Source: Psammoneis japonica
Lineage: Eukaryota
Direction of reading: 5' to 3'
Assembly (NCBI GenBank): GCA_008632985.1
Contig: QPGO01000125.1
Location: 62,001 to 126,000, forward strand
Length of the DNA: 64,000 bases
Part shown: piece after piece, positions 4,805 through 57,500 of the stretch
Numbering within the stretch: the first letter of the stretch is position 1
Layout of the letters: each line of letters opens with the position of its first letter
Notes under the pieces: generated by a model
Told to the model about the DNA's origin: nothing
The model's database searches: none
The model's input: the letters and a program-made list of their open reading frames with translations, nothing else
Translations under genes and position numbers: made by a program

Positions 4805-4949
4805 TTTGATGTCATCAAAGAGCAGGGCCCTGTCGAGATCCTCTTACGTTTTGCATCAATGACTGGTGTCGGTCACGGCAATTAGCACCGTTCTTTCAAT
4901 GTCTAGACAGCGCCACCGCATCGCAACAGTGCGAGCTTTAGACAGTCAG

Positions 4950-5720
4950 ATTGTGTCGACGGATTTGAATTGAGAAGGACACGTCCTCTCATCATCTACG
5001 CTCGCTCGCGTGTCCACATGTTGGCAAAGCAATGTCACAAGCCTTGTCCCGCAATGCGTGTGTTTGAAATCAAGCGCACGTTTCTCCAAAAAGGTAGACC
5101 CCCGTCTCGGTTTTGGTGGAAAAGGCATGCTGCTCAAGCAACTCTCGTCCCTCGACATTGTCTTTTCCAGCAATTCCCGTGGCCGCCCATGACGGACATG
5201 CCGATGCAGCGAGAACATCACCAGAGCGTTGTCGATTCAACAAACATGCATGCCAGACCTGGGCCAGCTTGGTGTTGGAAAGTTTGGGAAGAACTTTTTC
5301 TGCCCAGAAAAAGTGCCCCTGTGACAATTGATGGAGAAGCACGCGTCGTGTCCTTGACGAGTCGTTTTGGCGACATTGGCCACCAAATCATCTGCATCCG
5401 ACACGGAACCCCAATCGCTGAAGCCCGACACAACGGGAATGATTCGCTCAGGCACTGCCTCATCATCATTGATTGTGTCAACGAATCTCTTCAACCACGT
5501 TTGTCAGCGCCTCTTGATGATTCAGGTCGACGGCAATTGCGGTTCCTCCCATTTCCACCACAACCTTGCAGACCGTCGTGCCAATGCCTCCCGTTGCTCC
5601 TGTTGTCGTTGTGAAACTTGCACTCTTGGAGGCTGGCACGTTGCATTCCCAGCGGCTGCTGGGTTTCACAAATGACTCAAACCAATTCGGCGTTCTTCCA
5701 TTCTCTTCTTGTGTCGTCAT
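4950..5720 (-). pseudogene. Short-chain dehydrogenase/reductase (retinol dehydrogenase/WWOX-like) pseudogene
   Basis: TGATGGIG cofactor motif (5580-5603) followed by AIAVD. IIPVVSGFSDWGSV and TRQGHDACFSINC...GHFFWAEKVLP match the family pattern TxxGYExxFxVNYLGHFLLTxxLLP. The match is split across several frames. Confidence 0.7.
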
Positions 5721-26300: not shown

Positions 26301-29300
26301 CGGCACAGGCCAAGGCCAACAACAAGCACAATCAGCCGCACAAGAAGGGCCCACAAGCAGGGTGGGTGTCAAGGTTTGTAAAAATGCAAGAATGCACAAA
26401 GTGGCTCTCCTCTCTCTGCAATCCAAGCACTGGAAGTCATTTTGCAAATGACAAGACCAGCTTTGATTGATGGACAATGTGACAACTCTGCCAGTGGGTC
26501 AGTCAGGCAATTTGGGCTGATGGAGCTGCAACACATCATCTCCAGGAGCCACATTTTGTGTCAACCTGCAAGAAGTGCAAGCCCTGCTGAGTGAGTTTGA
26601 AAACTGAGAGCTGACAATTTTGTTGCCTGGGCTCACCTCTTTGACTTGGTGTTGCTGTTGGAGCATCTCAAGTGCACTCAAATCTGCCCAAGCAGCAAGA
26701 AACTGGCACAGCCTTGTGGAGATCTAAAACAATCACTTGAGGCCATGATGCCCAACCAAAAATGAGACCCCTGACTGTGCTCACCTTGAATCTCAGAGTG
26801 GCAATCTAGCCACAGCTGACACAGACACCAAAAACCAACACCAAAAAGGTGGGTCACATGGGCTGACATGACCTGCACTGAGGTGAGAAACAGCACAGCC
26901 CATGAGCAAGCACACTTCTTGCAAAAACAAAAAGTCTTTTTGTGACAAGCACCAAAACAAGGGCTCTTCTTCTCAAACAAAGACAATTTGCAAGATGACA
27001 ATGAAGAGAGTTGCAAGGTGCAGTGGAGGTGAGCAGACAGCAAAAGCCAATGATGCACAATGTCAGCGCCAACCAAAAAAGTGGTGGTGTTGCACTCATT
27101 TGGTCTTGGACAAAATGGGGAAAAACAACTGCTGTTTGTTTGTTCTGTTCATGGTGCACTTCTGCAAAAAGTTTGACAACAGCTGTCAGACAGGGCACTG
27201 GCTTTGACAACGCAACGCAGTTGATCATCAGCACATTTTCACATGACACACAACCAAGGCTCAAGGTGGAGAGTGCATGGGAAGCACAGGGAATTGCAAC
27301 ATTGCAAGAATTTGCACACATTTCTGTGGCACACACATGACAGCATTTGCGGTGATTTCCCAGAAACTCATGCTTCTGCAGAAGAGCATGGCAAGAGGTG
27401 GCAATCCCAGAGAATTTCAAGGAATCCCACCACAAAAGCAGGCCAAGCTTCAAAGTGGCTGCTCTCCAGCTGACTTCACACTTTGCAACATCTCCAACAT
27501 TTTTCCTGCATGTGGAGCTCACAGTTTTTTGGCAGCAGCTGGGCAACAGATGAAGTTCCAAGCAACAGCTCAAACAAGTTTGAGACAGATGACATGCAGA
27601 GCCTCAGCACAGTTTTGCAAAGAGCAAGCTTGGTTGAAAAATGCCACCTTCACAAAAAAGTGCAGGACACGCACCAAGAACAGCTGCCTTGGCTTTTTTG
27701 GGTGCTGTGGTTTTGCAACCAAAATGGTGCAGAATGCAAAAGCAACTGACCACAAAAACATTTGCACCACATTGCAAAGTGCATGACACCTTGCACATGA
27801 CTCACACAAACCTCATGCAAATCTTGCAAACATGACTCATCTTGCAAACACCTTGCACATGTCTTGCACACATCTCGCACACATTGTGCAAACATCTCAC
27901 ACATCTCTCAAGCACCTCAAAAGCACATCTTGCAAACACCTGGCACACAACATCTTTCGCACGTTCTGTGAACACTTGCGCACATCTCACACAAACACCT
28001 TGCACACATCTTGAACAAATTTGGCTGGCCACACCTTGTTGTGACCACACTCTCTAGAAACAGCACAAAGAACAAACAAAGCAGCTACCACAATTGCATC
28101 TGTGAGACCATGACCAAGGCCTGCATGCATCTTGTGCACATTTTACATTCACCTCACACATGGCTTGCACACAACTTGCAAACACCTCAAACATGGCTCT
28201 TGTGCATGTCTTCCAAACATGCTGCCACCACCTCACACATGTCTTGCACACATCTTGAGCACAATGTTGCCTTGATGTGACCTCACACACAGCTTGCACA
28301 AATCTCACGTGCATGTTGCAAATGCCACACACACCTTGCACACAGCTTGCAAACACCTTGCAGCATGTCTTGTGCATGCCTCACACACATCTTGCGCTCA
28401 TCTCACAAACATCTCGCACACATCTTGCACACATGCAGTGCACACCTTGTGCACAACTCAAGCATGTCTTTTGCAAGCATCTTGAACATGTCTCAGTCAC
28501 AACCATCTCACCAACATGTCACACATGTCTGGCACACCGCACACACATTTTGCACAAATCTTCTTGCAAACACCTTGCACACATCTCACAAACACCTTGC
28601 ACACATCTTGCAAATGCCTCGCACATGTTTCGCACACATCACAGAAACAAGTTTCACACATCTTGCTCACATCTCATGCACAACTCACACACATCTCAAA
28701 AATGCCTTGAGCACATTTTGCGCACATTTTGCACACCTCACACATGTCTCACGCACATCTCAGAAACACCTCACACACACATTTCACACATGTTTTGTGC
28801 ACATCTCACAAACACCTCACAAATGCCCCACACACACCTTGCACACATCTTGCACTCATCTTGCAAACACCTCACAAATGCCTTGCACACACCCAGCGCA
28901 CATCTTGTGCACACCTGACAGACATGTCCCACACATCTTGTGTGCATCTGGGGAACACCTTGCACACATCTTGCAGTCATCTCACAAACGCATCACACGC
29001 GCAATCATGCAAACATCTTGTGCACATTCTCAAACATCTTGAGCAAGTTTTGCATGCACCTCACACACAGATCACAAAACACATTGTGCACATCTCACAA
29101 ACACCTCACACATGCCTTGCACAAATCTTGCAAACACCTTGCAAACATTTCACACACACCTGGCACACATCTTTCAAACACCTTGCACATGGTGTTGTCT
29201 GGCATGCATCTTGTGCACATCTCACAAACGCCCCACACACGTCTTGCAGACATCTTGCAAACACCTTGCACACATCTGACCAACATCTCACACATGCCTC

Positions 29301-32300
29301 ACACAGATTTTGCGCATGTCTTGCACACATCTCTCACACATTTTGCAAACATCTTGCACATGCATCTGGCACACATCTCACAAACATCTCACACGTGTCT
29401 GGCACACATCTTTCAAACACCTTGCACATGGTGTTGTCTGGCATGCATCTTGTGCACATCTCACAAACACCCCACACATGTCTTGCAAGCATCTTGCAAA
29501 CACCTTGCACACATCTGACTGACATCTCGCACATGCCTCACACAGATTTTGCACATGTCTTGCACATTTTGCAAACATCTTGCACATGTGTCTGGCACAT
29601 GTCTCACAAACATCTCACACGTGTCTTGCACACATTTCTCACACATCTTGCAAACACCTCGTGCATGTCTTGCGCACATCTTTTGCACATCTGGCACACA
29701 TCTTGTGTGCATCTCACACAAGGTCTGCAGGAAATCATGTTTTTGAGCAAAAAACAGAGAATCTGCTTGAGCTTCAATCATTTGCAATGCCAGCAGTGCA
29801 GCCACATGCACTTTTTCTGTGTGAGCTTGTGCATTTTTGACACAACTTTGACACAACTTTTGACACAAATCAAAGTTGTGCCACAGTTTCAAAAATGCAC
29901 ATCTCTGGGTGATTTTAGAATTCTTGCGAGACTTCCAGTGCAAACTCTGCGCAAAAAAACAAAGCCCGGGTGTGCATTTTGAAAGTTGTGCCGCACATTT
30001 TGAAGAATGTGTGCGCAGGTTCTTTCACATGCAGAAGTCCAGGAGTGCATTCCTGCACAGCACAAAAGTTGGGACATTTTCAATGTGAGCACATCCGGGT
30101 CTTTGCACAACTTTTTTGTCTCACACATTTTTTTGTGTCAAAAGTTGTGTCTAGAAATGTCTTTTCTGCAAGGTGGTGTTGGCAGCAAATTTGTCTTGTC
30201 CAACGGATTTTGTGCTGGCAGGCATGACTCACATCAATTTTGACATGCAGGTGGCAAACATGGCAATTTCCTGCAGACCCACACATCTTGCAAACAGCAC
30301 CTGCTCACACACATCTGGCACACATCTTGCAAACACATTGCACATGTCTTGCACACATCTCTCACACACATCTCACAAACACCTCCTCACACACATGTTG
30401 CAAAGATGTCACACATGTTTGGCACACATCTTGCACACAACTCATGCACACTTGCAAACATCTTGAACACATCTCAAAATCACCTGGCCAATGCCTCACA
30501 AACACTCCACACATGATGGTCAAACACCTTGCAACACATCTTGAAAATGGCCCACACACTTCTTTCACACCTCTTCACAAACATCTTCCAAACACCTCAC
30601 ACACATCTTGCACACATCTCACAAACACCTTTGGCACATTTTCACACATCTTGCACACACTTTGCACATGTTTCACGCACATTTTGTGCACATTTTGCAA
30701 GCACCTCACACACATCACACAAACACCTGGCACACATCTTGTGCACACAGAGTGCACGCTGTTTTGCAAACACCCTGCGCGCATGCTGCACACATCTTGC
30801 ACTCATCTTGCAAGTGCCTCACACAGGCTTTGTGCCCATCTCATGCATGTCTTGCACACATCTTGCAAACACCTTGCACATGTCTGGCAAACGTCTCACA
30901 CACATCTTGTGAACCCCTTTTGCAAACATGACTCATCTTGCAAACACCTTGCACATGTCTTGCACACATCTCACATGCGTTGTGCAAACATCTCACACAT
31001 CTCTCAAACACCTCAAAAGCACATCTTGCACACATCTTGCAAACACCTGGCACACATCTTCCACACGTTTTGTGAACACTTGCACACATCTCACACAAAC
31101 ACCTTGCACACATCTTGAACAAATTTGGCTGGCCGCACCTTGTTGTGAACCACACTCTCTAGAAACAGCACAAAGAACAAACAAAGCAGCTGCCACAATT
31201 GCATCTGTGAGACCATGACCAAAGCCTGCACGCATCTTGTGCACATTTTGCATTCACCTCGCACGTGGCTTGCACACATCTTGCAAACACCTCAAGCATG
31301 GCTCTTGTGCATGTCTTCCAAACATCTTGCCACCACCTCACACATGTCTTGCACACATCTTGAGCACAACGTTGCCTTGATGTGACCTCACACACAGCTT
31401 GCACAAATCTCACATGCATCTTGCAAATGCCACACACACCTCACACACAGCTTGCAAACACCTTGCACATGTCTTGTGCATGCCTCACACACATCTTGCA
31501 CTCATCTCACAAACACCTCACACACATCTTGCACTCATGCAGCACACACCTTGTGCACAACTCAAGCATGTCTTTTGCAAGCATCTTGAACATGTCTCAG
31601 TCAAACCATCTCACCAACATGTCACACATGTCTGGCACACTGCACACACATTTTGCACAAATCTTCTTGCAAACACCTTGCACACATCTCACAAACACCT
31701 TGCACACATCTTGCAAATGCCTTGCACATGTTTCACACACATCACAGAAACAAGTTTCACACATCTTGCTCGCGTCTCATGCACAACTCACACACACACA
31801 CACATCTCAAAAATGCCTTGAGCACATTTTGCGCACATTTTGCACACCTCACACATGTCTCGTGCACATCTCAGAAACACCTCACACACACATTTCACAC
31901 ATGTCTTGTGCACATCTCACAAACACCTCACAAATGCCCCACACACACCTTGCACACACCCAGCGCACATCTTGTGCACACCTGACAGACACATCCCACA
32001 CATCTTGTGTGCATCTGGGAAACACCTTGCACACATCTTGCAGTCATCTCACAAACACATCACACGTGCAATCATGCAAACATCTTGAGCAAGTTTTGCA
32101 CACATCTCACACACAGATCACAAAACACGTTGTGCACATCTCACAAACACCTTGCACATGCCTTGCACAAATCTTGCAAACACCTTGCAAACATTTTGCA
32201 CACATCTGGCACACATCTTTCAAACACCTTGCACATGGTCTTGTCTGGCATGCATCTTGTGCACATCTCACAAACACCCCACACATGTCTTGCAAACACC

Positions 32301-35300
32301 TTGCACACATCTGACCAACATCTCACACATGCCTCGCACAGATTTTGCACATGTCTTGCACACATCTCTCACACATTTTGCAAACATCTTGCGCATGTGT
32401 CTGGCACACATCTCACAAACATCTCACACGTGTCTTGCGCACATCTCTCACACATCTTGCAAACACCTCGTGCATGTCTTGCACACATCTTTTTCACATC
32501 TGGCACACATCTTGTGTGCATTTCACACAAAGTCTGCAGGAAATCAGGTTTTCAAGCAAAAAACAGAGAGTCTGTGTGAGTTTCAATCATTTGCAACACC
32601 AGCGGCACAGCCGTGCACACTTTTTCTATGCAAGCTTGTGCGCTTTTGACACAACTTTGCACAAATCAAAGTTGTGCCACAGTTTCAAAAATGCACATCT
32701 GGGTGATTTTAGAATTCTTGCGAGACTTCCAGTGCAAATTCTGCACAAAAAAACAAAACCCGGGTGTGCATTTTGAAAGTTGTGCCACACATTTTGAAAA
32801 ATGTGTGTGCGGGTTCTTTCACATGCAGAAGTCCAGGAGTGCATTCCTGCACAGCACAAAAGCTGGGACATTTTCAATTGAGCACATCCGGGTCTTTGCA
32901 CAACTTTTTTTTCTCACACATTTTTTGTGTCAAAAGTTGTGTCTAGAAATGTCTTTTCTGTGAGGTGGTGTTGGCAGCAAATTTGTCTTGTCCAACAGAT
33001 TTTGTGCTGCCAGGTGCAACTCACATCAATTTTGACATGCAGGTGGCAAACATGGCAATTTCCTGCAGACCCACACATCTTGCAAACAGCACCTCACACA
33101 CATGTGGCGCACATCTTGCAAACACATTGCACATGTCTTGCACACATCTCTCACACACATCTCACAAACACCTCCTCACACACATGTTGCAAAGACGTCA
33201 CACATGTTTGGCACACATCTTGCACACAACTCATGCACACTTGCAAACATCTTGAACACATCTCAAAATCACCTCACCAGCAATGCTGAAACATGCATTT
33301 TTGGTGATGCACAACTCAGCTTTTGCTGAAACATGCAGCAAAGGCAAGATGTCGTTCATTTCAGCAGATTGCCCGGATGGTGTTGAGCACATTTTGCACA
33401 CATCTTGCACACACCTCATTCACATCTCATGCACATTTTGCACACCTCTTCCAAATGCCTGAAACATCTCATGCGCACCTTGTGCACACCTTGTGCACCA
33501 CATCCAACAAAAACTTTGCACAACTGGCGCACATCTTGTGTGCGCTTTGCTCGCACATGTCTTGCAAGCACCTCACACCTCACACACACACACTGCACAC
33601 ATCTTGTGCACATCTTGCAAGCACCTCACACAGGTTTTGCACACATCTCATTCACACCTCACACAGCATCTTGCAAATGCCTTGCATGCATCTTGCACAG
33701 ATTGCACAACATCTCACACACACCTTTCATGCATCTCTCACATGTCCTGCACACATCTCACAAACACTTCACAGGTGTCTTGCGCACATCTCACAAACCC
33801 CTCACACATGTGCATCTTGCACATGTCTCATGCACATCTCCGACACATCTTGCAAACACCTCACACACTTCTCATGCACATCTCCCACACATCTTGCAAA
33901 CACTTCATGTGTGTCTCATGCACATCTTGCACACATTTTGCAAACACGTCGCACACTGCTGCTGCTGCTGACAGCATGACATTGCAAGAGAAAGAAAGAG
34001 CAACAGCATCCCATCCAGGGAGTGCTGAGGCTTTAAGGCTGCATGGGCACAGGAGGCTGTGCTTTTCAAGTCTCATGACAATGGGCTCACAAAGCCAGCA
34101 AGCCTTCAAAGCAGCCGCCAGCTTGACATTGATCAGAGCTTGCATCATTTTTGTTGGCTGCAGAGCAGCCGCACACTCTTGGGGGCATGCTGCCTGCAGT
34201 GGCTCCACACCCATTGCAGACATGGAGAACATTGCATCACTCAGGTCATCCCTGTGGTTGTTGTGTGTGGCATGATCAGCACCAGCGTGCCCGGCCCAAA
34301 TGTGCATGTGCAAACCCCCCGGCGCTGTGTTTCTGCCAGACAAAATCACAAAACACAGTTGACAACATGAGCTTTGTTTGCAGCAATCCATGGGATCAGC
34401 ACATGAGCTGATGCAGCAGTGAGGACAAGCCAACACCTTGTTGACAAGAGCAAGCAGTGATGATGGCACAACCAAGGCAAACTTGAGAACCGCCGCAGAG
34501 GGCCTGCAATCTTGGGAACACAACATCATGCGCGTGCACGGTCACAAGAGACTGCCCCAAACAGGGATCTCAAAAATGCCTTGAGCACATTTTGCACACA
34601 TCTTGAAAACACCTCACACATGTCTCATGCAGATCTCAGAGACACCTCATGCACATCTCACACATGTCTCATGCACACCTCAAAACCACCTCACAAACAT
34701 GACCCACACACCTCACGCACACTTGCCTCATCTTGAAAACACCTGACACATCTTGAGCACATCCAGCACACATCTTGCCTGCATCTTCTTGCAAATGCAT
34801 CATGTGCATGATCCTGCAAGCATCATGCAAACATCTTGTGTTTCTCTCAAGCACCTCATGCAATTCTTGTGCACATCTTGAACACAGACCACACACATGT
34901 TGCACAAATCATGCAAACAACTCACACATGTCTTGCACAAATCTCACAAACACCTTGCACAAATCTCGCACACATCTCACCACATCTCACACATCCACAC
35001 ACCTGCACATGCATCTTGCAAACACCCCACACACATCAAGCACGTCTTTCACAACTCTTGCAAACAAATCACACCCATCTTGCACACATCTTGCAACAAC
35101 ATCACACACCTGTTTTTTCACTTGTCTCAGACACATCACTCTCAAAGACAGATCACACACATCTCACACACACATTGCACACATCTTGCAAACACCTCAT
35201 GCATGTCTTGCACACATCTCACAAGCAACACCTCACACACATGTTGCACACATGATCTTGCAAACACCTGACACATGTCTTGCACACATCTCACAAACAC

Positions 35301-37300
35301 CTCGCGTGCATCACACAAACATGTGTTGCGATGTCTTGCACACACTTGACACACACACCTTGCACACAATTTGGGCACGCATCTTGTGCACATCTCACAA
35401 CCATCTCACAGCCATCTCACACATGTTTGGTGCACACCTCATGCACATCTTGCACACACCATGCAAACACCTCCCACACATCTCTCACACACATCTTGCA
35501 AACACCTCACACACATCATGAAAATGTGCTGCACACATCTCTTGCACACACTTGGCACACATCTTGCACACAGCTTGTGCACAACTCAAGGGCGTGTTTT
35601 TCAAATGTCTTGCACACATGTCTCACAACCACCTCGCACATGTCTGGCACACACCTTGTGCAAATCTTGTGTGCATCTTGCAAACACCTCACACCCATGA
35701 TTTTGTGCAGATCTTGGGCACATCTCAATCACATCTTGCAGACACTTTGCACAAGTCACACATGCACTCAAGTGGTGTCATGTTGAATCAAGTTGCCTTT
35801 GAACTTTTTGTTGGTGCCCCAGTGTGCAAAGTTCAAACATCTTGCACACATCTTGTGCAGCCCTTGCAAACACCTCACATGCAGCTCGCACACATCTTGC
35901 AAACACCTTGCGCATGATGTCTTGCACACATCTGGTGCACACATCTCAGAGTTGTGCAGGTCTCACACATGCCTCACACACAGCTCACAAACACCTTGCA
36001 AGCCTCTCCCCCATGCACCTTGGGCACATCTTGTGCTCATCTTGGGAATGACATCTCACAAGTGCCTTGCATGCATGCCCAGCACATGTCATCTTGAGCA
36101 CCTCTGACAGACACATCACACACATGTTGTGCACACCTTGCACCCATCTGACAAACACATCACATGCATGATCTTGCAAACACTGTGCAAACATCTTGCA
36201 CACATCTCTCAAACACTGCACACAAGCCTTTCGCACATCTCATGTGCACCCTGCACACAGATCAGGCACATGTTGTGCACATCTCACAAACACCCCCCCC
36301 ACACACAGCGTGTGGTGTGCACACCCCAGCTCTGCCTGTGTTTCTGCAAGACAAAATCACACAAAGCACAGTTGTGGTTGACAACAAGCACACAAGACAA
36401 TGACTCTGATTGAGTGAACAAACACTGATGCAGCAGCGAGGATGAGCCAACACCTTGTTGACAAGAGCAAGTCATGATGATGATGCAACCAGTGCAAACC
36501 AGGCCCTCTCTGTGACACAGAGGGCCTGCAATCTTGAGTGCACTGCGTTGTCATGCATGGCTGCAAGTGACTGCCCCAAAGAGGGACAGACCACTGCATC
36601 AGAGTTCACCCAGCAAAAGCAGAGTCTGTGCGTCGATCACGATGCATCTGCGCTGTTGGCAAAACCCTTGCCCCCCTTTGCAGCCTGCACCACTTCTGTC
36701 AGCAAGTCCACCTTGAGCCAACAGGTCTTCACCCCAACTGTCCTCTGAAGCACCCTGCTGATGTGGGAGGAACTCAATTTGCTCCAAGCTCCACACCTCC
36801 CAACGAACCCTCTGCGGGCCAGCAGCGCATTTCCATTGGTGTTGCAGCCCCCCTCCTTTTCCTCCTCATCCTGCACCTGGTTTGTCTGACCCTCCCAATC
36901 AAGTTGTGAAGGCTCACCTCAGCAGCACTCAGGACAAGATTCTTGGACCTGGTCTTTGAATGGCTCCTCCATCATCTCTGCTGTCAACCCCCCTCGTCCT
37001 TCTCCCTTTTGCCCTTGACCACCTTTGCAGCATTGGCCATCACTTTCATGTCTTCTTCTGTGGCCATTCTTGTGATGCTTCCTCCTCCATCCTGTCACCA
37101 CCTCCCAAGCCACCCTGGAAAGATCCTGCCGACTTTTCAAACTCCGACACCTCCTCCTTCACAGCTCTCGTCAATTTTCTCTCTCCTCTGCTCGACGAAC
37201 CTTGTTGCCCAAGCCAATGTCACCTGGTGGCAACTCTCTCCTGACCACTTCAGCTCCTCCTGTCACACCTCTGCTCCCAATCATGGGCCACCCAACTTTT
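23350..37300. other. TpA- and CpG-depleted block B (degenerate TE-like relics plus satellite)
   Basis: TA nearly absent for ~14 kb (none found by eye between ~34040 and ~37295). CG also scarce. Dense Cys/His-rich ORFs in all frames, almost all ending in TGA. Confidence 0.9.
27780..36300. repeat. Complex satellite of CACACATCTTGCAAACACCT-like monomers with a ~2.8-3.1 kb higher-order duplication
   Basis: Unique anchors recur: TCTCTAGAAACAGCACAAAGAAC at ~28051 and ~31157, and GTCTAGAAATGTC at ~30149 and ~32941. Internal ~240 bp tandem at 29160-29640. A further dispersed pair lies at ~34320-34520 and ~36335-36540. Confidence 0.9.
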
Positions 37301-38651: not shown

Positions 38652-38988
38652 CTGTCACTTGGACAACGCCGTAAAACAATTTTTTCCAGTGCCGAAATCC
38701 CCTCCTGCATCTCAGCCACGTGCTGAGATCTGTAGCAGCCTCTGACGAAATAGAAGTGTGGAGCGCGCTTTTTCCAGTAAAGAGGTACTCCTATATTATT
38801 TCTATTTTAAGTTTTGTAACGAGTGTCGAATGGTATGTAGTGCATCTCACTGCTCCGACATTCCATTGACTTTTGTTTGTAATTCGCAGATATATTGAAG
38901 ATGTAGTCTTGATTCTATGATACACGTGTAGCGAACGCAAGGGACATGAAATCTATTCTAAATGACGGCACCTGTAGGGAGTGATGTG

Positions 38989-39792
38989 TCAGCCAATATC
39001 CTGGTCAGATTCTGTTTCTCGAAGCAACCTGTCTCGACAACAAGGACATTCGTCCGACTTCTTCAGCCACAGCACTATGCAATCCCGGTGGAAAACATGC
39101 TGGCACTTTGAGACGTTAGAAATCGCAAGTTGTTCATCTTCCTGAAACGATTGAAGACATATTGGGCATGCCATAGCAGCAGTGGTCCCCGTATCACCGA
39201 ATAACTCTATGGTTCGACTGTGCGTGGGTTGCTGAATATTGACGCTAGAGTCATCGTTGCCCCTTAGATTGCTCGATCCACTAGTCTGACACATATCAAT
39301 GCTACCATCGGTGTTGGAAGATGTATCTGCTATTGTTGATAGGGCCTTTTGTCAAAGTAAACGCAAGAATCGGTTACTTCCTCTTCCGTTACAAAAAAGA
39401 TGCTGGCGACATAGCATACAGTACCTACCTTGAACTCCAGACAAGAGTCAATCATTGATTGTCTTTGCTGCTCCGAACTCGCTGCTTCGCCATTCTCGGA
39501 TGATTCTTCTGGTTGCTGCTGTTGGCGGCCAAGGACACCGAACTTTCTAAGTATGATGAAAAGTAGCAGGAGAAAAATCAAAGATAGCAAGACCAAGCCC
39601 TGTCAAAGATTAGCCGGGAATATTGATGTGAGTAAAGAAAGTGCTATGTGAGAATTCTTATTATGAAGCACTCACACAGATGATGGCTGCGCCATACTTG
39701 GCACCGCCTCGGCTGCCGGTGTTTTGATCGGACCCCCAACGAAGGCTTCGGATATCAGCGATGTTGTTGTTACCGGTACTCGGCAGAGACAT
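38989..39792 (-). CDS. TM + RING-H2 E3 ubiquitin ligase (ATL-like), tandem paralog 1, 3 exons
   Basis: CPICLQSF...CQHVFHRDCIVLWL...CPCCR, with an upstream TM exon LLSLIFLLLLFIILRK. Confidence 0.85.
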
Positions 39793-40691
39793 GGTCACTT
39801 CTTCTGCTACTGATCGTACCAATGGAATAGAAATGGGACTTCGTGAGATTCTTTGTCGCAACCCTCCGGTGAATCTCCATAACCCGAAACGATCGGATTG
39901 GTTCGCGAAGGTCAAAATGTGAGAAGAGAGTGAAGTCGGGGGCAATAAAGCGTGACAGATCTTTATTTCTACTTATTCAGACTTGTAGACCTTTATTACA
40001 AAGCTCATTAGACGTGTTGTTGTTCTTCGTTCTGACGCCGAGTTCCGAGTTTTGACATCATCTACAGTTAGTAGACGTAACCTTACTGTTCTTTTGGTTT
40101 TGTGTTAGTGTTTTGTTGTTTGCCAAATTAGCTATGTAGTGTGTAGTCTCATCGAGTTGTAGATGATCCAAAACGATCGCTCCAAAAATGGTTATTTGCT
40201 ATTCGACCGCGTTAAGCCAACGAGAAGGCGCAACAAAAGATCATCAGTTTTTCAACTGCATTCTCTGAGATGGCGAATAAATGTTGGTCTCCGGTCTCGT
40301 CTTTAACTTCCTTTGATCTGCTATCTACCATGCGTTTCAAGGAACTCCGCTCGACACACCGGGAATTCGCCGAGATATTTCAACCAATTCAGGACTCATT
40401 TGCCTTTAAACAATGCTTGCAGCAACCCGAACGCCCTGAATGCGCACAGCATCTTCTTCAGCTTCGAGAAGGAACACTTCCATGATGAAAGCACGTTCTC
40501 TCCAGTGACGAGAAGTGAATTTGGGTACTATGGTCGAGGGCATATCTGTGTCGCGCTTCTGCGGACCGCCGGTTTCTGTTTTGTTATACGCGGAGGTCTT
40601 TCAGATGCAGCCTTGATTCTACGATGTAGTCGTAGAGTAGAGCACGAAAGAGATGTGAAACCTTCGCTAAGTGTTTGGTTAGGATGAGATA

Positions 40692-41521
40692 TTAGCTACT
40701 CTCTTGGTTAGATTCTATTTCTCGAAGCAACTTGTCTCGACAACAGGGACATTCGTCAGACTTTCTCAGCCACAAAACTATGCAATCGCGGTGAAAGGCA
40801 TGATGGCATTTTGACACGTTAGAAATGGCAACTTGCTCGTCGTCCATGAACGATTGAAGACAGATTGGGCATGTTAGAGCGTCAGTGGTCCTGTTGTCTC
40901 CGAACAAATCTATGCTTCGATCGTGAATGGGGTGTTGAACACTGACTTCAGTGTTTTCGTTGTCATTTACGTTGCTTGAACCAGTAGTGCGCAGCGTATC
41001 GACGGTATCACCAGAGGTGGACGATGTATCTGTTCCTATTGAGATAATCTTGTGTCATCAAATTGAAAGGTCAAAGTAGATGCAAGCGTGTCAGTTCCTG
41101 CATTAGCACGGAAGATAATAACTACACAGCATGTAGTACCTTCGACTCAAGACATGAATCAATCATGGCTTGTCTGTGTGGCTCCGAATCTGTTACTTGG
41201 TCATTCTCGTCTGAATCTGCTGGCTGTTGCTGTTGACAATCAAGTAAATCGAACTTTTTAAGAATAGCGAAAAGCAGCACTAGAAAAATCAATGATAGTA
41301 AAACAAGACACTGTTTAGGAGCGAGTGTTCAAATAATGGAGATATGGTTGAGAAAAAGGGGTATGCAGGAATTTTCATTTGTAAAGTAGCGACTCGTGTA
41401 TGGATTCACTCACAAATATCATTGCTGAGCCGTTCTTTGCATCGCCGCGGGGATCAGAATCGGACCCCAAGCGAAGTCCCCGAGTAATGTTGGCGACGCT
41501 GCTCTTGCGGAGGAAAGACAT
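40692..41521 (-). CDS. TM + RING-H2 E3 ligase, tandem paralog 2, 3 exons
   Basis: CPICLQSF...CHHAFHRDCIVLWL...CPCCR. Exon structure and sequence closely parallel paralog 1. Confidence 0.85.
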
Positions 41522-42199: not shown

Positions 42200-45100
42200 A
42201 TTTAAGGGCATGGAATTGTTTTTGTGGCAATCTACAATCTGCTGCACACCACCTTCAGGAAGAGCAGCATTGCTGGAGGCACATGTGGTTGGCACGTTGG
42301 GGGACAAGGCATCATGTGATGGCAGTGCTCTGGTGGAAATACAGGTGGCACTTGTGATGGAAAGGCAAATGGCTGTGGGAGGAAGTGACCCGCGGGAGGG
42401 GGTGGAATCGTTGCAAGCCGGGACATCCTGCTGGCTGCAACAGCGGCGTGGCATCGACTGATTCCCAGGCAGCACGTGCAGGCAAGCTTCCTCCACTCAC
42501 ACTTTGTCAGCAACTCCTGGTGAGTGGAGAGAGGGAATGTGCTCTCATTGGTCATTCTCGTCCTCTCTGGCCTCTCGATTCTACCACCTTTTTACCGGCG
42601 ATGCTCTGCGGATGCGGCAGCTAGAGCAGATTGATGAGAAAACACACAGGGCCCTGCCATGTCACCCGTGTGACAAATTTACCTACGAGCTTGCTCTTGT
42701 CTGACAGAACTTGACGAACAATGGGTTGCCTTGGTGGTGTGCCCCACCGCATCAAGATTCGTTGTCGTCGTCAACAATGAAAATGCAAGAAGGCCACTTG
42801 GTCGGATTGCCCTGCTTTTTGAAGAGACTGCTGCAGACCGTGCCTGGAATGTGCTCATCCACCTTTTTTCTACATTTGCTGTGGCTGAGGTGCCGGAAAC
42901 GATTCAACTCACTTGCGGTGTCTGTTCAAATGACATTTCTCCGTTCAAAATTCCGCTTCGTGGGCCAAAAAGCACAGGATTTTTTTCACGGAATGACAAC
43001 AATGTTGAAAGCATTGACAACACCATGGCTGATGACTCATGTTGTTTTACATCGCAAAGCAGAAACTGAGATTGCAGGCTTTTGCATTTTCCCTGCTCTC
43101 GTCGCAAGCGCCGTGCACCAAATGACTTGAGTTTCGTGTGGCCGTGCGGAGCCAGACAGATCTCGCCACATCAACCAATCCGGAGAGCAACAATCCAGCA
43201 GAGATGTCACTGCAATCGGCATCGCTCACTGACGCGGTGAGCGTCTGGCAGAGCTGAGCAATGTTTGTGGTGCGAAAGCTGGAATTGTTTGTGATGCGAA
43301 AGCCAGAATCCAGCGCGGCTTCGAACGGGGCTTTCTCTCCAGCAGCCCCCCCCTGACTCACCTCGAAAGAAACTCTTTCCACTTCCCATGAGGAGTCATG
43401 GAAATGCGAGGCCATCCAGCACCTTTCCTGGCACCACCATTGCTGCCACGTTTGCTGGCCATGGTGAAGAGTGCGGCCGCAATGGCATTTGATGTGCTGT
43501 TTTGTTGGCCTTTTCTCTTTTAAAATTTGGATGCAACAGACACACATCGCATGCACGCAACAGTGCTGCTTTTCTAGAGATTGGCCATCCACAAAAGAGA
43601 ATCAATTTGTCATTGCGATTTTTCCAGAGGTCTAGAAAACTGGCAGTGCAGTCATTTTTCATCATCCGCGGAAAAATTGCGCGACACCCCCCAAAAATGC
43701 AGTGCCCAAAGCACAACTTTTGACCACACGTTCGCGCAGAACTCGCCAAGTCGAAAAACCACGAAAACACGCAGGTTTCTACGCAAATCCAGCACAAAAC
43801 GAATGGCAAAGCTCTGCCTCTTCCTCTTCACACACCGGGAAAAACACCTGCACATTTGATCACAAGGTCATTGCTGCATTCTTCTTTTCATCATTCAACT
43901 GAACCATTGTTGCCATGACATCGCAGACCTCCTTGTCATCTGCCGGCACTGAGATTGAGCAGCCGGAAACAATTGAATTTGCAACGGCTGCAGTTCAACA
44001 TCCTCAAGGGGAGGCAATGCGGAGAAAGAAGAATCACCGGGGTTCAACTGTCAGTGTGGTGCTGCCGTCACCAGATGAGCGCGACATGATGCCAGTTCGT
44101 CTTGGGGTGGAAGAGTGGACTCTTGTGAAACAGAAACAGCCAAAAGCTGGATCAGAAAAGAAAAAACAGTTCAGTCAACACGACTGCATTGTGGACCGGC
44201 CTGCCAGCAGCAACGGTCACACCAGCTCCTCTTGTCGACCTGGAGGCTCAATTTATCCTCATCACATTTTCTTCTCAAAAGTGAAATTGAGAGATTGCTG
44301 GAGCTTGAAGAATTTGAGTTTTGTGACAGAGAGAAGAAGAAGCAAATTTGCTGTCGGGAAAAGGCACTTGATAAATTCGACACACGAGAAACGAATCCCA
44401 GTGAGGATCCATTGATGTTTCTCCCTCCTGAGCCGGCACGAGATTGGAGCATTGGCGCCGGCATGCCGCTTGACAGATTCAAGGTTGTTTTGAAGCAGAG
44501 GCCCCCAGAGCCAGCTCATCCAGCGTCCCTGCTTTCATCAGATGATGAGTTGTCTGTGGATGATGAAGACATGCTGGATCATCATGAATCTCTGGAGGAT
44601 TGGAAGTCAGCGCCACGGGAAATCGATTGTGCAGTGCTTGACTTGCTCGTGGTTGCAAAGAGCATCGCGAAAGATGATGCCAGTGGTGGGGGGAGCCCTT
44701 CTTCAAATAAAAGGCAGCACACATCCTCTACAAGCCATGACGACCCTTTGCCAGATTGGTGCAAGAAACTGAGCGACGTTCGCGTTGCTCTCTTACAACC
44801 TGTGGTGAAGAGCACAAACAATGACTGTCTTCTCTTGGATGGCAAGCCCACTGTTGTAACCAACTTCTCTGTGTCGATTGGGGAAGACCCTGAGAGCTTC
44901 AAATTGGGTCACCTGCGACAGAGCGTTCTGAATCAGGCTGCTTCGCAAGCGAAGTGTCGTGGTAGACTTGGAATCAACTCCGCTCTGTTCTGCCAGACCT
45001 CAAAGGTTGACAAGCATGTGACAAGGCTCAACAGCACGGACCAAATGTGGAACTTTCTGGAGAACAAGTGCAGTGGTAAAAAGAACAACTGCAAGTGCCA

Positions 45101-47600
45101 ACTTCCATGCACACGTCGTTTGCCGTTTGCGATGGCATCATCTCTCACCATGACATTTTCTCATTGCTGCATTTTGTGATCTGTGGTTTTGAAGATGTGT
45201 CTGTGTTCCTTGCCCTTGGCTCAAAGCACCACAATGACGTCGACTGCGATGAGGAACAGTCGCAAATTGCCGATCCGTCGACACATGAGGACTCTCACCG
45301 GAGTGGCAACAACCAAGCTCTGTCTTCACCGGCAAAGACAGCATTCGACCCTGGTGCCAGCAACCGAAGACGTGGAAGGGCAGCTGAGAGCTCGCATTCT
45401 GTGAGCAGGGAGTGGGTTTTCAAACATCTCTGCATGGATGAGAACTCACCATGTCATCATGGATTCACCAATGAAATGCTTGCTGTGACGACGAGTTGTT
45501 TCAACGGCAAGAGGTTCCCACCGGAAAATCAACTCCCTTGGGAAAAATGGCCGTTGGGATGCGGTGAGCACCCAGAGATGACACAAATGCCTGCACATGA
45601 TGCACCGCACATGCAGAAGCAGATTGGTTCTGCCAAGCTAAAGAGGGGACAATGCCCTCTTGACGAAGCCACGGGGCTTCCTCCTTCTGGTTTAAAAACG
45701 ACACCAACAAAAGCTGCCGGCAGTGGCACAATCTTCTCTCCAACAACTGTCAACCCACTTGATCAACCAATCAGTGCCGGCCAGGGGATGGCAATTTTGG
45801 TGCAGTCGGATTGTCACTCGAAGCATGGGCTGGGAGCTGCAAGTGTCCCTGGAAGTTCGGTGGACCAATCTGCCGCCAAGCCAAAAACCAAGCCAGTGTT
45901 CACATTTCGTCGGAAGGTCGCAGATGAACAACATGTGAGTGAGACAGTTCTCATTGGGACGGAATGTGTGGATCAAAATGGAGCCTTGATTGACGCGGTG
46001 AAACACGTGGCCAATTCCAACAAAAGAGCATTTCATCGTCGTCCGGGGACAGAGATTCAGTTCATGCTTCGTTTGAGCAACAAAGATCCAATGGCATTTA
46101 CACTGGATGCTGCTCGCACGTGTAAGATTGCTGACCTTTTGGAGAGCACAGCAGGGGAAGCGTCACCATGTTTGTTTGATGTCGTCGAGATGGCGGAGGA
46201 CGTCGAGGAGGATCTAGAAGACGCAAGCTTTGATCAGCCGAGCTTGCAGAGATCAGTCAGAAATGCTTGTGCTGAGAATCCATTTGTTCACCCACTAGAA
46301 TTGAACAGTTTTCTACAGACATGTTGCACGCACCATTCTTCCCCAGCTGCTTCATCCTCATCCTCCTCTTCCGGAGGATCCTGGAAAAACGGAACGTTGC
46401 AGTGTCGAAAGATGTTGCGTGCCTTTGCTGGAGTGACGCTCATGAGAGCCTCCTGGTGGGCAGCCTCACAATCTGTTTTTGCCAGAACACGATTTCTCCT
46501 CAATGATGATTTGCATGAACAAAAGAAGTGCTCAATTGGGTTCAGATCAGGTGAGTGCCTTGCCGCAAACAGGATCTCAGCACCTGCGTTCCGCATGATC
46601 TCTGCAACCTCGGGATCGTGATGCTGAATCGCATTGTCCAAAATGACGAGAGAGTTTGGTTCCTGCTTGTCAAATTCACCAAGCTGAGGCACCACACACT
46701 CTGTCAACCATTCCTTAAACCGTTCTGTGTCAACAGTCCCTCTTGTGGGATCATTGTCATCTTTTCCTCGCTCTCGCAAAACAATGTCACAAGGTTCCAA
46801 GACAAAGCCATTGCAATTGGCGGCACCCATCAATGTGCGCCGCGTTTCCGCAGCATCAAATGCACGTGTAAATTCAGCTTTTTTGCCTTTTAATGCCCAG
46901 ATTCGACGACGACGGGCGCTCAAGCGGTCTTTTGCTGATTCGTCCAAAAACAAGGCCATCTCTGGGTTGGAAAGCAGGATCTCGAGAGTGTTTTGGCAGT
47001 CATCGTGCTCTTCTTGGCAACGTTGGGCTGCAATTTCCGTGACAACTTTGAGAGAGCAGTGCATTCGCTCTGTCAGAAGTCTCCACATTGACGTTGTCGC
47101 ACGTCTCACACCCGCAATTCTTTCGCACTCGTCCCGCATTTCGTCCAGATGGAACCCAGGGTGATCCTCAACGATGGATCTGACAATGTCAACCTGGTGG
47201 CATTCCCATGAGTGTGCTTCATACATTGTGTTTCACTTTCGCTTGCTCCTTTTCTTCAATTGCTCTTTTCTCCGTCGTGTCGCTTCGGGAACTTCCCCGA
47301 ATTGCTGACAATGGAGACACCAACGATGCAAAGTGGTTTCACTGATCTTCACAATGCTCGCACCTGTCACCTCTTCCAGAATGCAATCAAGAGGCTTGTC
47401 CTCAAATGGCCCAACCCTTGCAATCAAATGGCCAACAAGTGTCTCTTCCAAACGAAGCTGTCCGAGTGGACTTGCATGATTGCACCCTGCTGCTTCAACT
47501 TGAGGAATGAGCTCCGAGAAGACAAGGACCGCGACGATCAAGGCAAGAACGACTTCCAGCAACATCTTTTCGGTTTGCTGCAGCTTTTCTTCCAACGTTG
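42200..47600. other. TpA-depleted block C with CpG largely retained
   Basis: TA is rare while CG remains common (e.g. 46800-47150). TA returns at ~47610, still inside the element. Confidence 0.85.
43915..46280 (+). pseudogene. Degenerate second (cargo) gene inside the Tc1/mariner element, function unknown
   Basis: Overlapping long + strand ORFs (43915-44415, 44115-45179, 45095 onward) with protein-like composition and an acidic C-terminus (EMAEDVEEDLED). Convergent with the transposase; almost no Tyr. Confidence 0.5.
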
Positions 47601-47646
47601 CAATGTGGAATAACATGTGACGCAATGCTGCCATACAACGCGACAC
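46288..47646 (-). pseudogene. DD34E transposase (Tc1/IS630 type) interrupted by one in-frame TGA at 47233-47235
   Basis: HTH-like ISETTLHRW..., then PGFHLDE, FLDES, ILDNA...H and HSPDLNPIE (34 residues between the second D and the E). ORFs 47233..47646 and 46288..47226 are in the same frame. Confidence 0.9.
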
Positions 47647-48114
47647 GGTTTGCTACGTTTGGTTGTAAAGGTTGCAATGAGATGGACCTGCCGCTTGATA
47701 AAGGAAAAATGTACTAGACTCACGTAGAATCCTACGTGTTTTTGTCGTTTTTCGACTTAGTGATTTTCGCGGGAGGCTGGCGCAAAAGTTGTGCGTTAGG
47801 CAACTCTATTTTTGGGGGGTGTCGCGCGATTTTTTCCGCGGATGATGAAAATGACTGTATCGCAATATGGTACAGGTCAACCCGAGGTTACCCTAAGTAA
47901 TATCCGTTGAGAAGGGTTGTGCGAACACGAACCACCAACTAGCACGAAAAGCTTGCCTCTGATCGCGAAGGAGCAGGTGAGGTAAGATAGAGTAGATGTT
48001 GTTAAAATAACTATCGTCCCAATCCAAAAAGTTGCTATGCGACAGCATTAATCCAACACATCGCTTTCCAATTATATCAACTGCATTCCCTACGATGCAC
48101 GAATAACTCTTGGT

Positions 48115-48959
48115 CTAATCTTGATCTTGTACCTTTATTCTGTCATCTGTCGCAAGGAATTTCGCTCGACAGACTGGGCATTCACTGTGACATTGCAACC
48201 ATTCGAGGATGCATTTGCGGTGAAACAAATGCTTGCAACCCGACCGCGCTGAATATGCAACATCGTCTTCTCGAAGGAAAACTTCTAGGCAAATGTGGCA
48301 GGGCGTAGCAACGTCCGTCGTGTCAATCTCATTATTCATTTCTTCGTCACCGCTATTTTCCATCGAAGCACACGATTTTTGAGGCTTCAATGACGAAATT
48401 TTAGGAACAATATCGTCTGCAGTCAGTTCGGTCAAGTTTGTATCAGTTGTTGATGACTGATCAGCTTCGATGTCTCCAAATTTCTGCGCAAAACATCAGT
48501 CGCACATCGGAAGAGAAGATATTAATATCATACATAGTCTCAAGTCTCCACGCACCTTTACTACCAAACTTTCGTCAATCTGCCGTTGTCTATTTTCTTG
48601 TCTGCGCTGAGCTTGGGCTTCGTTGAACTCGTCTTGACGGCGTCTCCGGGCTTCCGCAATTGAACTTAGATCGGCATTGAATAAACCATCGAGAGGGTGC
48701 AAATATCCAAGTTTTCTCCAGAGAAGAGGCAAGAATACGAGAAGGCCAAAGGCCAATATGACTCCAACCTAGGAAAATGTTGAAAAAGAAAAATCAAAGC
48801 AGCTAAGTTAGATGCAGTTTACAATGAGAAAAATTTTCGTGTCGAGCGGCTACTACTCACAACAATGTTTACTGTACTGATTCCACCACCACTACCTCCA
48901 GCGCTTGTGCTGTCGCTTAAGAACCGATCCAACAATTGGACTTCGATTGTACTCGCCAT
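48115..48959 (-). CDS. TM + RING-H2 E3 ligase, tandem paralog 3, 3 exons
   Basis: CHICLEVF...CKHLFHRKCILEWL...CPVCR, with TM exon LAFGLLVFLPLLWRK...IDESLVVK. Confidence 0.85.
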
Positions 48960-55199: not shown

Positions 55200-57500
55200 G
55201 CATCCACACACCAAAAAAGTCACCCAGCTCCTCCACAAGCTCCCTGAGCTTGCTTTGTGTCTTCTGTGTGGTCTTTTTTGAACTCTCAATCTCCAGCTCA
55301 TGAGTGTCTTTGTTGAGCTGCTCACTTTGTCCCTGACATTGGAGCCACTGCTCCTGGTGGTGTTCTGGACAGTGATTGCTGGCTGTCACTCTCTGCCCTC
55401 CTCTTCTGTGGCCTTGGCAGAGCTCCAAAACAACTGTGCTGGAACAGCCGGTGCATCCACTCTTTGGGTTTGGTTGGATTTGCAAAATTTCAAACATGCT
55501 GTGGAGAGAATCAGGCACCCAGAGGCAGTGCGCTCCTCTGATGGGGGTGTTGGAGTTGACAGCTGCTTTGGAGTGAGCCAAGCACACTTGTCTCTTTTGC
55601 TTGTTCACCTCTCACCCACCAGCCTCATCTTTTTTCTCTCACCACCACTGTTCTTGTTTTCATTTGTGGTTGCAGCTCCACATTTTGAGCCACAATTTTC
55701 AGCACCATTTCCCCTTGGATGTGTCTCATCATCTTTGTTGGGCATGGATTTGTGGCTGAATCTGCCATCTGCCATTGTTCTTTTTGAGCAGTTTCTGGGT
55801 GAGCATGCTCTTTGTGCTCCTCCAGCACCAGGAGTGGACCATTTTGAAAAATGTCTTGATGGTGCATTGTCATTCCCACACAGAAAGCAGACATCCATCA
55901 AGTTGTGAGCCACACTTTCATGACAGCAAGTGGCGGGGCTCCTCTGCCACAAAACAAAACAAAAGAGCTTGTCCCTTTGCACAATCTTTTGTTGACATTG
56001 GTGACAGATGTTCTCAAACAGAGCAACTGGCATTTCCATCACCATCACACTTGCCACTCTTGTCAGTTTCATTGGTTCAGATTTTGTGTTTGGCGCGGTG
56101 CTCCTTCTGCTTTCACACAAACCACATGACTTGCACTGCAACTCTGACCCCATCTGTCCTGTGAAAACCACCTCTGACCCCAATTTCCCAACACTCTTTC
56201 ATGTGAGTCATCAATCGATTGACCTCATGCACATCAAGCACGGGGGATGACACATGAAAACCATGCCACCCAACACCATGTCAACTTTTCCATTGATTCC
56301 CATGGCTCACATCATCCGACTCTGCCAACGAATGACCGCTGTGTGAGGACAATCCCTCCTCATGTGCCCAACTTTGTTGTGCTTCCAGCACACATCTTCT
56401 TCTTGTCATTCTGTGCAAAACTCATGCCCTCAGGTTTCTTGTTGGTCCCATGCCTGTCCAACACCTGCAATGCCTCCTCAGCTGAATTGGGGTGCATGTC
56501 AACCCCAGCCAGCATGAGCTGCCAATGTGGGTCTTTCAAGATGCATTGACAATCCTTGGCAGCATCCACTGGCTTCACTGCTGATGACTTGTTCCTCTCT
56601 TTGCTCCAGACATCATCAACATCCTTGTTGAACCCATCTTCTTTCTTGGCCATTTTTTCTGGGATGATCCTGCCATTTCAACCTTGCTCACAAACTGGCT
56701 GCAATGGCCTTGAAAAAGTGTTTCTCCTTTGTCTTGACAAATGAGCACCAACTGCTTCCAAGCCTCAACCCCCACCAGGACATGTGTTCTCATTTGCGTT
56801 GGCTTGAGAATGCTCAGTGGTGCCACCACATCCAACTCCTTTGTGGCTCTTGCAAACTCCACCACTCTTTCAAGCTTGTCATGATTGGCCTTCGTGCATT
56901 GCCCCACAATCATGTTCAATGCCTTTGCCTTCTGCGTCTTGTAGATTGAGCTCTGCTTCACATGGTGACCACACTTTTTGCCCCAGATTGCCTTGTCTTT
57001 CTCCAATGTGGTGTCTCCCAATGCATGATCCAGCTCTCCCAGCATGCTCTCCTGCCTCACAGATGCCAGTGCTTGCATCTCTGGCCTGAAGGTTCTTCTG
57101 ATGTGCTCGCCACCAGCATCATGCACCCACTTCTTCAGCTCTTTTGCCCATCTTTTCCCGGACTTGCATTGGAGTTCCATGGCTTGCCAACTGATGCAAA
57201 CTCTGTCTTGCTGACCCTGAGATGACCTTGCCCCACCCTTTTTTAGCAGACCCTCAACAGCTTCTTTAACAGCAAGGCCCTCCAGAGACCATTTCTTTCC
57301 CTCATCCAGCCAGCTTGCTTGCTGCAATGTGCCAACATGAGGCACACCTTTGGTTTCTTGTTGACCTCCTGGCCCTCTCCTTTTGTTTCCTGTTGACTCC
57401 CCAGCCCTTGTCTGCAGATTCCTTTTTGCTTTCCAGCCCTCACACTCTGTGGATTTCTCTCAACTTCCCAGCCCTTGTTCTGTGGATTCCTCTTGACTTC
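55200..57500 (-). mobile_element. Degenerate Ty1/copia (CoDi-like) LTR retrotransposon gag(-pol) relic
   Basis: KAKALNMIVGQCTKANHDKLE...DVVAPLSILK and LAGVDMHPNSAEEALQVLDRH match the diatom copia gag patterns (LIxGQCxxxMxxKLE...DxxxLLxxIK; GxDxYPxxxxxAxxxLxxY). No LTRs identified. Confidence 0.65.

Follow-up and report, generated by a model that had tools for sequence, protein, structure and literature searches.

A dead Tc1/mariner-type transposase in Psammoneis japonica and the probable loss of its TpA steps after insertion

The 64,000-nt window analysed here (Psammoneis japonica, assembly GCA_008632985.1, contig QPGO01000125.1, positions 62,001 to 126,000 of the forward strand; all coordinates below count from its first letter) contains a Tc1/mariner-like DNA transposon whose transposase frame is open apart from one internal stop, and from which the dinucleotide TA has nearly disappeared while CG is still abundant. 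We hold with good confidence that the transposase is dead and that it was recoded by a tract-limited, DNA-level conversion of TpA to CpA or TpG, which acted after insertion and ran faster than a separate decay of CpG.

The transposon and its transposase

The features on which the argument rests are the following (o/e, observed-to-expected ratio of a dinucleotide):

46288..47646, minus strand: DDE_3 transposase frame, dead, with one internal TGA, conserved Tyr and Ile recoded and catalytic residues intact
43649..47857, minus strand (transposase): whole Tc1/mariner-like DNA transposon, 4209 nt, delimited by inverted-repeat ends and empty-site contigs
43649..43796, plus strand: left terminal inverted repeat, hypermutated, 1 TA left
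47651..47857, minus strand: right terminal inverted repeat plus 5' leader, beyond the edge of the mutated tract, 10 TA (o/e 0.67)
43647..43648, no strand: left copy of the target-site duplication, now TG
47858..47859, no strand: right copy of the target-site duplication, still TA
42300..47650, no strand: TpA-depleted tract (block C), drawn from TA positions and the block table
47233..47235, minus strand: in-frame TGA, codon 138; at 47235 the plus strand has G in two paralogous contigs, giving CGA in the coding sense
46555..46557, minus strand: His364 (CAC) in HSPDLNPIE, Tyr in 10 of 12 relatives

The transposase frame comprises 453 codons read from 47646 to 46288 on the minus strand with zero frameshifts, in the coordinates and frame that an earlier note on this DNA had given, and it closes on a terminal TGA after the internal one at codon 138. 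By Pfam, its product is assigned to DDE_3 (PF13358) at E 4.2e-17 and 62.8 bits, the cut-off being 28.6. All three catalytic residues (D235, D337, E372) survive at invariant alignment columns; the 34 residues separating D337 from E372 give the D, D, E spacing of the Tc1/mariner signature. The inverted repeats bounding the element open with CAGTCA, and segments of their arms (43649-43796 and 47710-47857) show 77-100% complementarity.

Paralogous copies were drawn from a public sequencing run, X1 (share of words 0.81), which placed 112 contigs on the stretch at a likeness of at least 80%; runs X2 and X3 covered almost nothing. Some X1 contigs run from 43646 directly to 47859, with a lone CA where the two meet, and are paralogous empty sites of the surrounding repeat; others join 44563 to 47481 and 44670 to 47528, as internally deleted copies. 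The left target-site copy (TG) and the empty-site CA are read as mutated TA, which would make this a TA target-site duplication. Because of the inverted ends, the duplication, and the empty-site and deletion-derivative contigs, the element is taken to be a multi-copy Tc1/mariner-type transposon, inserted at a TA within another repeat.

With Tc1/mariner DD34E transposons the element shares the DDE_3 domain, the D..D(34)E spacing, the TA duplication and inverted ends starting with CAGT. Tc1/mariner (IS630-Tc1-mariner) elements are compact, about 1.3-2.4 kb, and at 4209 nt the present element is long for the family; the excess may come from a captured or nested insert. The roughly 2.4 kb that separate the left end from the transposase (43850-46287) hold no recognisable content, Pfam and Atlas searches having given no match there, and the ends of contigs at 43871, 44335 and 44412 point to repeats that are nested or mosaic. 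A 508-aa plus-strand frame (45095-46621), antisense to the 3' end of the transposase, found no match in Pfam or Atlas either. Because only TGA closes a frame once TAA and TAG have been erased, long frames may be artefacts of the mutator, and this one is possibly spurious or, alternatively, a second gene with its stop erased.

The repeat that houses the transposon (42300-43648 and 47858-47957) is multi-copy, with a run depth several times that of single-copy DNA. In the present copy, the left part is depleted of TA and the right 100 nt retain 8 TA; copies elsewhere have CA or TG where the present copy has TA, and vice versa.

Loss of TA from the gene, the arms and the tract

The 1359-nt coding region contains 8 TA (o/e 0.09) and 65 CG (o/e 0.79), CA and TG are enriched 1.5-fold, and the frame is free of TAA and TAG. 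CG is abundant, as the earlier note had said, and of 38 Arg codons 26 remain CGN. This scarcity of TA is not shared by DNA encoding related proteins. A metagenome scan gave 597 matched stretches, 451 of which encode a relative; from the 80 loci kept, three were close enough to be used (L001, L002 and L009), and the other 77 were set aside for their distance, most of them short alignments to residues 227-420. In the DNA of the three metagenomic relatives, the corresponding region of the gene has a TA o/e of 0.59-0.71, against 0.09 here.

The effect on the protein was assessed by alignment with 12 relatives (P0002-P0013; 29-41% identity over the alignment). At columns with a Tyr consensus, Tyr is kept at 0 of 8 in the window, which instead has three Cys (TGY), two His (CAY), one Arg (CGC) and two Phe; consensus columns of residues other than Tyr and Ile are kept at 86 of 113 (Fisher p 2.6e-5 for the contrast). 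Ile is kept at two of its six columns (p 0.039), with ATG at three. Phe columns are all kept (6/6), as are those of Trp (4/4) and His (3/3), and Arg is kept at 10 of 14, eight of these ten being CGN. Across the whole protein, Tyr stands at 0.2%, against 3.9% (range 2.5-4.7) in the relatives, a deficit of 3.7% that is matched by a His plus Cys excess of 3.6%. The window retains a single Tyr codon, at 47223, and two paralogous contigs read CAT there.

Most of the individual replacements named in the earlier note, which had proposed a check against DDE_3 homologs, survive this comparison: at the supported columns, the relatives have Tyr or Ile rather than His, Cys or Met. Thus the expected YSPDLNPIE reads HSPDLNPIE at 46557-46555 (His364, above), the xYLDE motif reads FHLDE where 9 of 10 relatives have Tyr, and the proposed Ile-to-Met sites in DEMRD (M170) and TSMWR (M187) face Ile in 8 of 11 and 9 of 11 relatives, respectively. 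To these the alignment adds M351 (Ile in 10 of 12), Cys378 (Tyr in 12 of 12) and Cys217 (Tyr in 10 of 12). Two further motifs fared less evenly. In TLHRWCLHC, the final C (residue 113, of LHC) lies at a column with Tyr in 6 of 10 relatives, and the H of TLH and the C of WC fall away as candidates, with Tyr in just 2 of 10; in MHCSLK, the H lies at a variable column and drops out, while the C occupies a Tyr/Trp column with Tyr in three relatives.

That the loss followed insertion is seen from the arms of the element itself. The right arm and its target copy contain eight TA, and at these places the left arm reads CA at five, TG at two and TA at one; the losses are therefore one-way, 7:0, the sole TA of the left arm being present in the right arm as well. 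It is this asymmetry that carries the weight of the post-insertion argument. The left inverted repeat has lost 7 of 8 TA and 2 of 10 CpG, and CpG-type differences amount to 2 of 10 in each arm, including the right arm with its TA intact. The target-site copy that is mutated (left, TG) is derived from the host. Nor does the depleted tract coincide with the element: it begins about 1.35 kb to the left, in another repeat, where the non-coding flank 42300-43648 has a TA o/e of 0.14, and ends about 200 nt inside the right end. The adjoining open reading frames (ORFs) are ordinary genes of eukaryotes, encoding a RING finger (48115-48435), a protein kinase, an FMO-like protein and a CCCH zinc-finger protein; of these, the RING-finger gene, some 260 nt from the element, is untouched by the loss of TA.

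Within the element, CA (386) and TG (353) are nearly equal in number, and thus both strands were hit. A strand bias of the mutator was also considered, from these counts and from two Tyr-to-His against three Tyr-to-Cys changes; the numbers are too small and the idea was dropped.

Conversion of TA to CA or TG cannot break a reading frame, because it yields only C or G and its sole stop product, TGA, arises from TAA. The process removes TAA and TAG and so leaves long empty frames behind. Accordingly, TAA and TAG number 0-3 in each frame here, compared with 5-13 for the off-frames of a host gene. The sense frame nonetheless stands out, with two TGA where the other five frames have 7-22. An open frame is then no sign of youth, and the earlier argument from the intact frame to a young element does not stand. 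It is the lack of frameshifts relative to homologous proteins that serves as the better, though weaker, sign that general decay is modest.

The internal stop had been ascribed to a plausible CGA-to-TGA change, which the CGA carried by two paralogous contigs confirms. Against the X1 contigs, 188 of 232 variant places are transitions. A breakdown by class covers 40 of the 232, and 34 of these fall within the TA/CG/CA/TG exchange class:

CpG-type: 17 of 40 places (CG in the window at 9, in the copy at 8)
CA-versus-TG doubles: 10 of 40 places (5 adjacent pairs)
TA-type: 7 of 40 places (TA in the window at 5, in the copy at 2)
Other: 6 of 40 places

At the right edge of the tract (47635-47890), X1 contigs have TG at five places where the window has TA, each in a TAC context. 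Three of them (47635, 47655 and 47713) are each covered by a single contig reading TG, from which an allele, a strain variant and a close paralog cannot be told apart; the tract may still be spreading, or the contigs may be paralogs.

TA and CG across the window

The two losses separate clearly when tracts are compared (GC, guanine-plus-cytosine content):

Host stretches: TA o/e 0.60-0.67, CG o/e 0.99-1.13, GC about 0.46
Element within the tract: TA o/e 0.088, CG o/e 0.71, GC 0.50
Block D: TA o/e 0.035, CG o/e 0.20, GC 0.478

Across all depleted tracts, TA o/e lies at 0.02-0.14, against the host range above. When the window is cut into 128 bins of 500 nt, 60 are normal, 13 are low in TA with CG kept (TA o/e below 0.2, CG o/e at or above 0.6), 49 are low in both, and none combines normal TA with low CG: TA goes before CG. 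GC rises from 0.46 in host DNA to 0.498 in TA-only bins and falls to 0.479 where CG is also lost, as expected for a conversion of TA to CA/TG followed by one of CG to CA/TG. By arithmetic on the block table, the CA plus TG surplus equals about 83-86% of the TA and CG deficits combined.

The claim that TpA loss is the faster of the two in the element is thus upheld, by the arm (7/8 against 2/10) and by the coding region (o/e 0.09 against 0.79). Assuming a host-like starting composition and simple exponential loss, TpA loss would outrun CpG loss roughly 6-9 fold per site, with estimates of ~9 from the arm (ln 8 / ln 1.25), ~8 from the coding sequence and ~6 from the element.

The flanks of the 85 TA that survive in non-satellite tracts are not random (Y, pyrimidine; R, purine):

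Host DNA: YTAR 19%, mixed 54%, RTAY 27% (n=1201)
TA-only tracts (A-left, C): YTAR 36%, mixed 58%, RTAY 6% (n=50)
Tracts also without CG (A-right, B1, D): YTAR 69%, mixed 31%, RTAY 0% (n=35)

These spectra differ from the contexts of CA and TG in the same tracts (p 0.006 in the TA-only and 9e-10 in the TA- and CG-depleted ones), so the survivors are not simply new TAs made from CA or TG. The mutator prefers TA followed by a pyrimidine, and RTAY is lost first and YTAR last. Tyr has been wiped out because every Tyr codon (TAY) is a preferred site. The gradation of survivor contexts gives a second indication, independent of CpG, that the process has gone further in B1 and D than in C.

Blocks B and D, which lack both dinucleotides, had been proposed to be older than the element, and this holds in part. 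Two features are relevant:

27800..36300, plus strand: degenerate satellite with unit CACACATCTTG and periods 11/22/33/44, 8.5 kb (block B)
56578..57459, minus strand: Gag-like relic of a long terminal repeat (LTR) retrotransposon with both the TpA and the CpG signature (block D)

For the block B satellite, the composition is uninformative on age: the 11-nt unit has neither TA nor CG, and the lack is inherited from the unit. Between two satellite copies that are 94.6% identical, we counted 28 CpG-type events, 10 CA/TG doubles and 2 TA-type events, besides 17 further transitions and 18 transversions; the CpG-type events indicate that CpG decay is active there too. The satellite has a strong strand skew (CA 1674 against TG 790; GC skew about -0.3), and its unit looks like TA- and CG-free, CA/TG-rich DNA that was amplified afterwards.

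For block D, which is complex sequence, the proposal finds support in the Gag relic with its two signatures and in the more extreme survivor contexts. The frame 57459-56578 has 35 relatives (best E 4e-25), and it is assigned to the Gag of an LTR retrotransposon because relatives carry a CCHC zinc knuckle (three of the eight scanned). Tyr is kept at one of 12 consensus columns, with His at three and Cys at two; CGN is found at 0 of 17 Arg codons (transposase, 26 of 38), there is a surplus of Gln and Trp, and CAG stands at one conserved Arg position. Block D has thus undergone both processes, which fits a longer or heavier exposure and the proposed order; a difference in methylation could mimic this. 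By Pfam, no mobile-element domain was found in 142 stop-to-stop ORFs of at least 90 aa (blocks A, B and D and the left of C), nor in a smaller set of 32.

Elsewhere in the window, the TA-poor, CG-kept tract A-left (3533-6100) overlaps weak matches to a terpene synthase (PF19086, E 9e-5) and a short-chain dehydrogenase (PF00106, E 1e-3), and these frames may be gene copies caught in a mutated tract. Two direct repeats (38876-39593 and 40580-41304), 72% identical, have normal TA and CG and differ mostly by transversions and ordinary transitions; not every duplicate in this genome is hypermutated.

Explanations, known systems and significance

In the sequence of events that we propose, a DD34E element with inverted ends of about 150-200 nt would have inserted into another repeat, and TpA would then have been converted to CpA or TpG on both strands over 42300-47650, with the removal of about 85-90% of TA steps. 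In the protein, Tyr (TAY) would have become His or Cys, and Ile (ATA) Met; the frame would have stayed open, and its lone stop would stem from a separate, slower decay of CpG to TpG (CGA to TGA). The sequence itself shows the direction and context of the changes, their timing after insertion, the order of TA before CG and the flank bias. The chemistry is most likely a deamination of adenine in double-stranded TpA, and the tracts are presumably targeted via silent or repeat chromatin. More tentatively, one may envisage a dedicated and still-active mutator acting on adenine in double-stranded TpA, with a flank code of RTAY first and YTAR last, which would disable mobile-element proteins by recoding Tyr and Ile without stops, work some tenfold faster per site than the decay of methyl-CpG, and leave in the survivor contexts an exposure clock for silent chromatin.

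Several observations weigh against the tract-limited conversion of TpA or loosen its fit. Arg270 (CGC), at a Tyr column, requires two steps, and the two Tyr columns that read Phe do so in some relatives as well; the closest relatives are only 29-41% identical, and hence ancestral codons are reconstructed rather than seen. The arms differ at about 17 further places outside TA and CG and were therefore already non-identical at insertion, so that some of the TA versus CA/TG differences could be ancestral. The rate ratio depends on the original TA and CG content of the element, taken here to be host-like. Finally, between paralogs, where direction is not polarised, CpG-type places (17/40) exceed TA-type places (7/40), an excess that fits saturation of TA, yet CpG decay is not slow in absolute terms.

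The process matches the TpA to TpG/CpA hypermutation of integrated viral DNA measured de novo in the chlorarachniophyte Bigelowiella natans (Mettrop et al., bioRxiv 10.64898/2026.01.13.699255), and is a further case of a recently described kind. There, A>G and T>C changes make up 230 of 231 hypermutations, every one of the 230 lying at TpA, and TpA-poor coding sequences are enriched for DDE endonuclease and reverse transcriptase domains (bioRxiv 10.64898/2026.01.13.699255). Both systems share the dinucleotide, the direction, the involvement of both strands and the occurrence in tracts of foreign or silent DNA. Change of A:T to G:C at TpA is found here in 7 of 7 arm TA differences, in 5 of 8 Tyr columns (His or Cys), in 3 of 6 Ile columns (ATG) and in the rise of CA plus TG, and it is confined to a tract with the neighbouring genes spared. 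The lineage is different, it is transposons and adjoining DNA that are affected in the window, and the signature is a near-complete fossil, with a TA o/e of 0.01-0.09 against 0.45 in the region of nucleocytoplasmic large DNA virus (NCLDV) origin reported there. The available text of Mettrop et al. makes no mention of CpG, diatoms, flanking context or stop codons, and its supplements might hold context data; in the titles and abstract openings of the literature searched, we found no description of a TpA-directed process beyond theirs.

Two explanations would do without such a process in the DNA of this tract, and we regard both as highly improbable. If a TA-poor composition were native to the family, through codon choice or selection against TA, then His, Cys and Met would be normal residues at the columns in question; one relative, P0008, does have Met at the DEI column, and some relatives have Phe or Trp at certain Tyr columns. 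The relatives, however, carry Tyr and Ile at the recoded columns, the DNA of the three metagenomic ones has a TA o/e of 0.59-0.71, the element's own right end is normal (0.67), the target-site duplication and the foreign flank are affected, and paralogs differ at TA versus CA/TG places in both directions. RNA editing of A to I by an ADAR-like enzyme, fixed in the genome via an RNA intermediate, would draw on the upstream-U preference of ADARs, which resembles a TA motif, as Mettrop et al. note (bioRxiv 10.64898/2026.01.13.699255). Against it, the element is a cut-and-paste DNA transposon, the border of the tract falls inside it, the non-transcribed flank and the duplication are hit, and the two strands are affected about equally (CA 386, TG 353).

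The remaining alternatives concern the relation between the two losses. A single mutator that converts both palindromic steps, TA and CG, to CA/TG with a preference for TA would account for the absence of CG loss outside TA-depleted tracts (0 of 128 bins with normal TA and low CG), for the common end products and for the common tract borders, and Mettrop et al. cite ADAT2-type enzymes as editors of A as well as C in DNA (bioRxiv 10.64898/2026.01.13.699255). It would have to combine opposite chemistries (A:T>G:C and G:C>A:T), and the extents are decoupled: one 150-nt arm has lost TA at 7 of 8 and CpG at 2 of 10 places, and the right arm, with TA untouched, still has two CpG-type differences. 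The near-exclusive A>G or T>C spectrum in B. natans speaks against it as well, and we think it improbable. Rather less so, though still unlikely in our view, is the possibility that the contrast between blocks reflects methylation state instead of age: TpA erosion would strike every silent tract and CpG erosion only methylated cytosines, block C having kept its CG as unmethylated DNA. Element classes can differ in methylation; the element in block C is a DNA transposon and block D contains an LTR-retrotransposon relic, and blocks B1 and D come without an independent clock. But block C does lose CpG, as seen in the internal TGA that is CGA in paralogs and in the single contig over 45525-46678, whose three differences from the window are all CpG transitions; and the more extreme survivor contexts in the CG-poor tracts argue for a greater exposure to the TA process there too. 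The Gag relic also keeps fewer of its other consensus columns (50/102) than the transposase (86/113), a weak comparison in that families and thresholds differ.

Among longer-known systems, CpG decay, the deamination of 5-methylcytosine in methylated transposons, leaves TpA alone and has the opposite effect on GC; it accounts for the second, slower signature, namely the CGA-to-TGA change, the loss of CGN Arg codons in block D and the CG o/e of 0.2. Repeat-induced point mutation (RIP), in Neurospora and other ascomycetes, converts CpA to TpA, with a gain of TA, a drop in GC and new stop codons. Like RIP, the process proposed here acts on DNA, is associated with repeats and inactivates transposons by transition hypermutation, with a dinucleotide scar as its trace. 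Its direction is the opposite, with TA erased, GC rising and no stop able to arise, so that the RIP pattern is absent, and its tract borders do not follow repeat borders.

In this analysis, the element provides clean internal controls, since one of its inverted repeats is mutated and the other is not, and the same holds for the two copies of the TA duplication. What the window adds may be summarised as (i) the controls from the transposase, the terminal inverted repeats and the target-site duplication, (ii) the order of TA before CG, TpA loss being several-fold the faster by the estimate above, (iii) the inability of the process to create stops, by which long, open but dead frames will be called by gene finders, and (iv) the flank rule, a preference that any candidate enzyme must reproduce. 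The near completion of the process in a second, unrelated lineage suggests a widespread eukaryotic treatment of mobile DNA.

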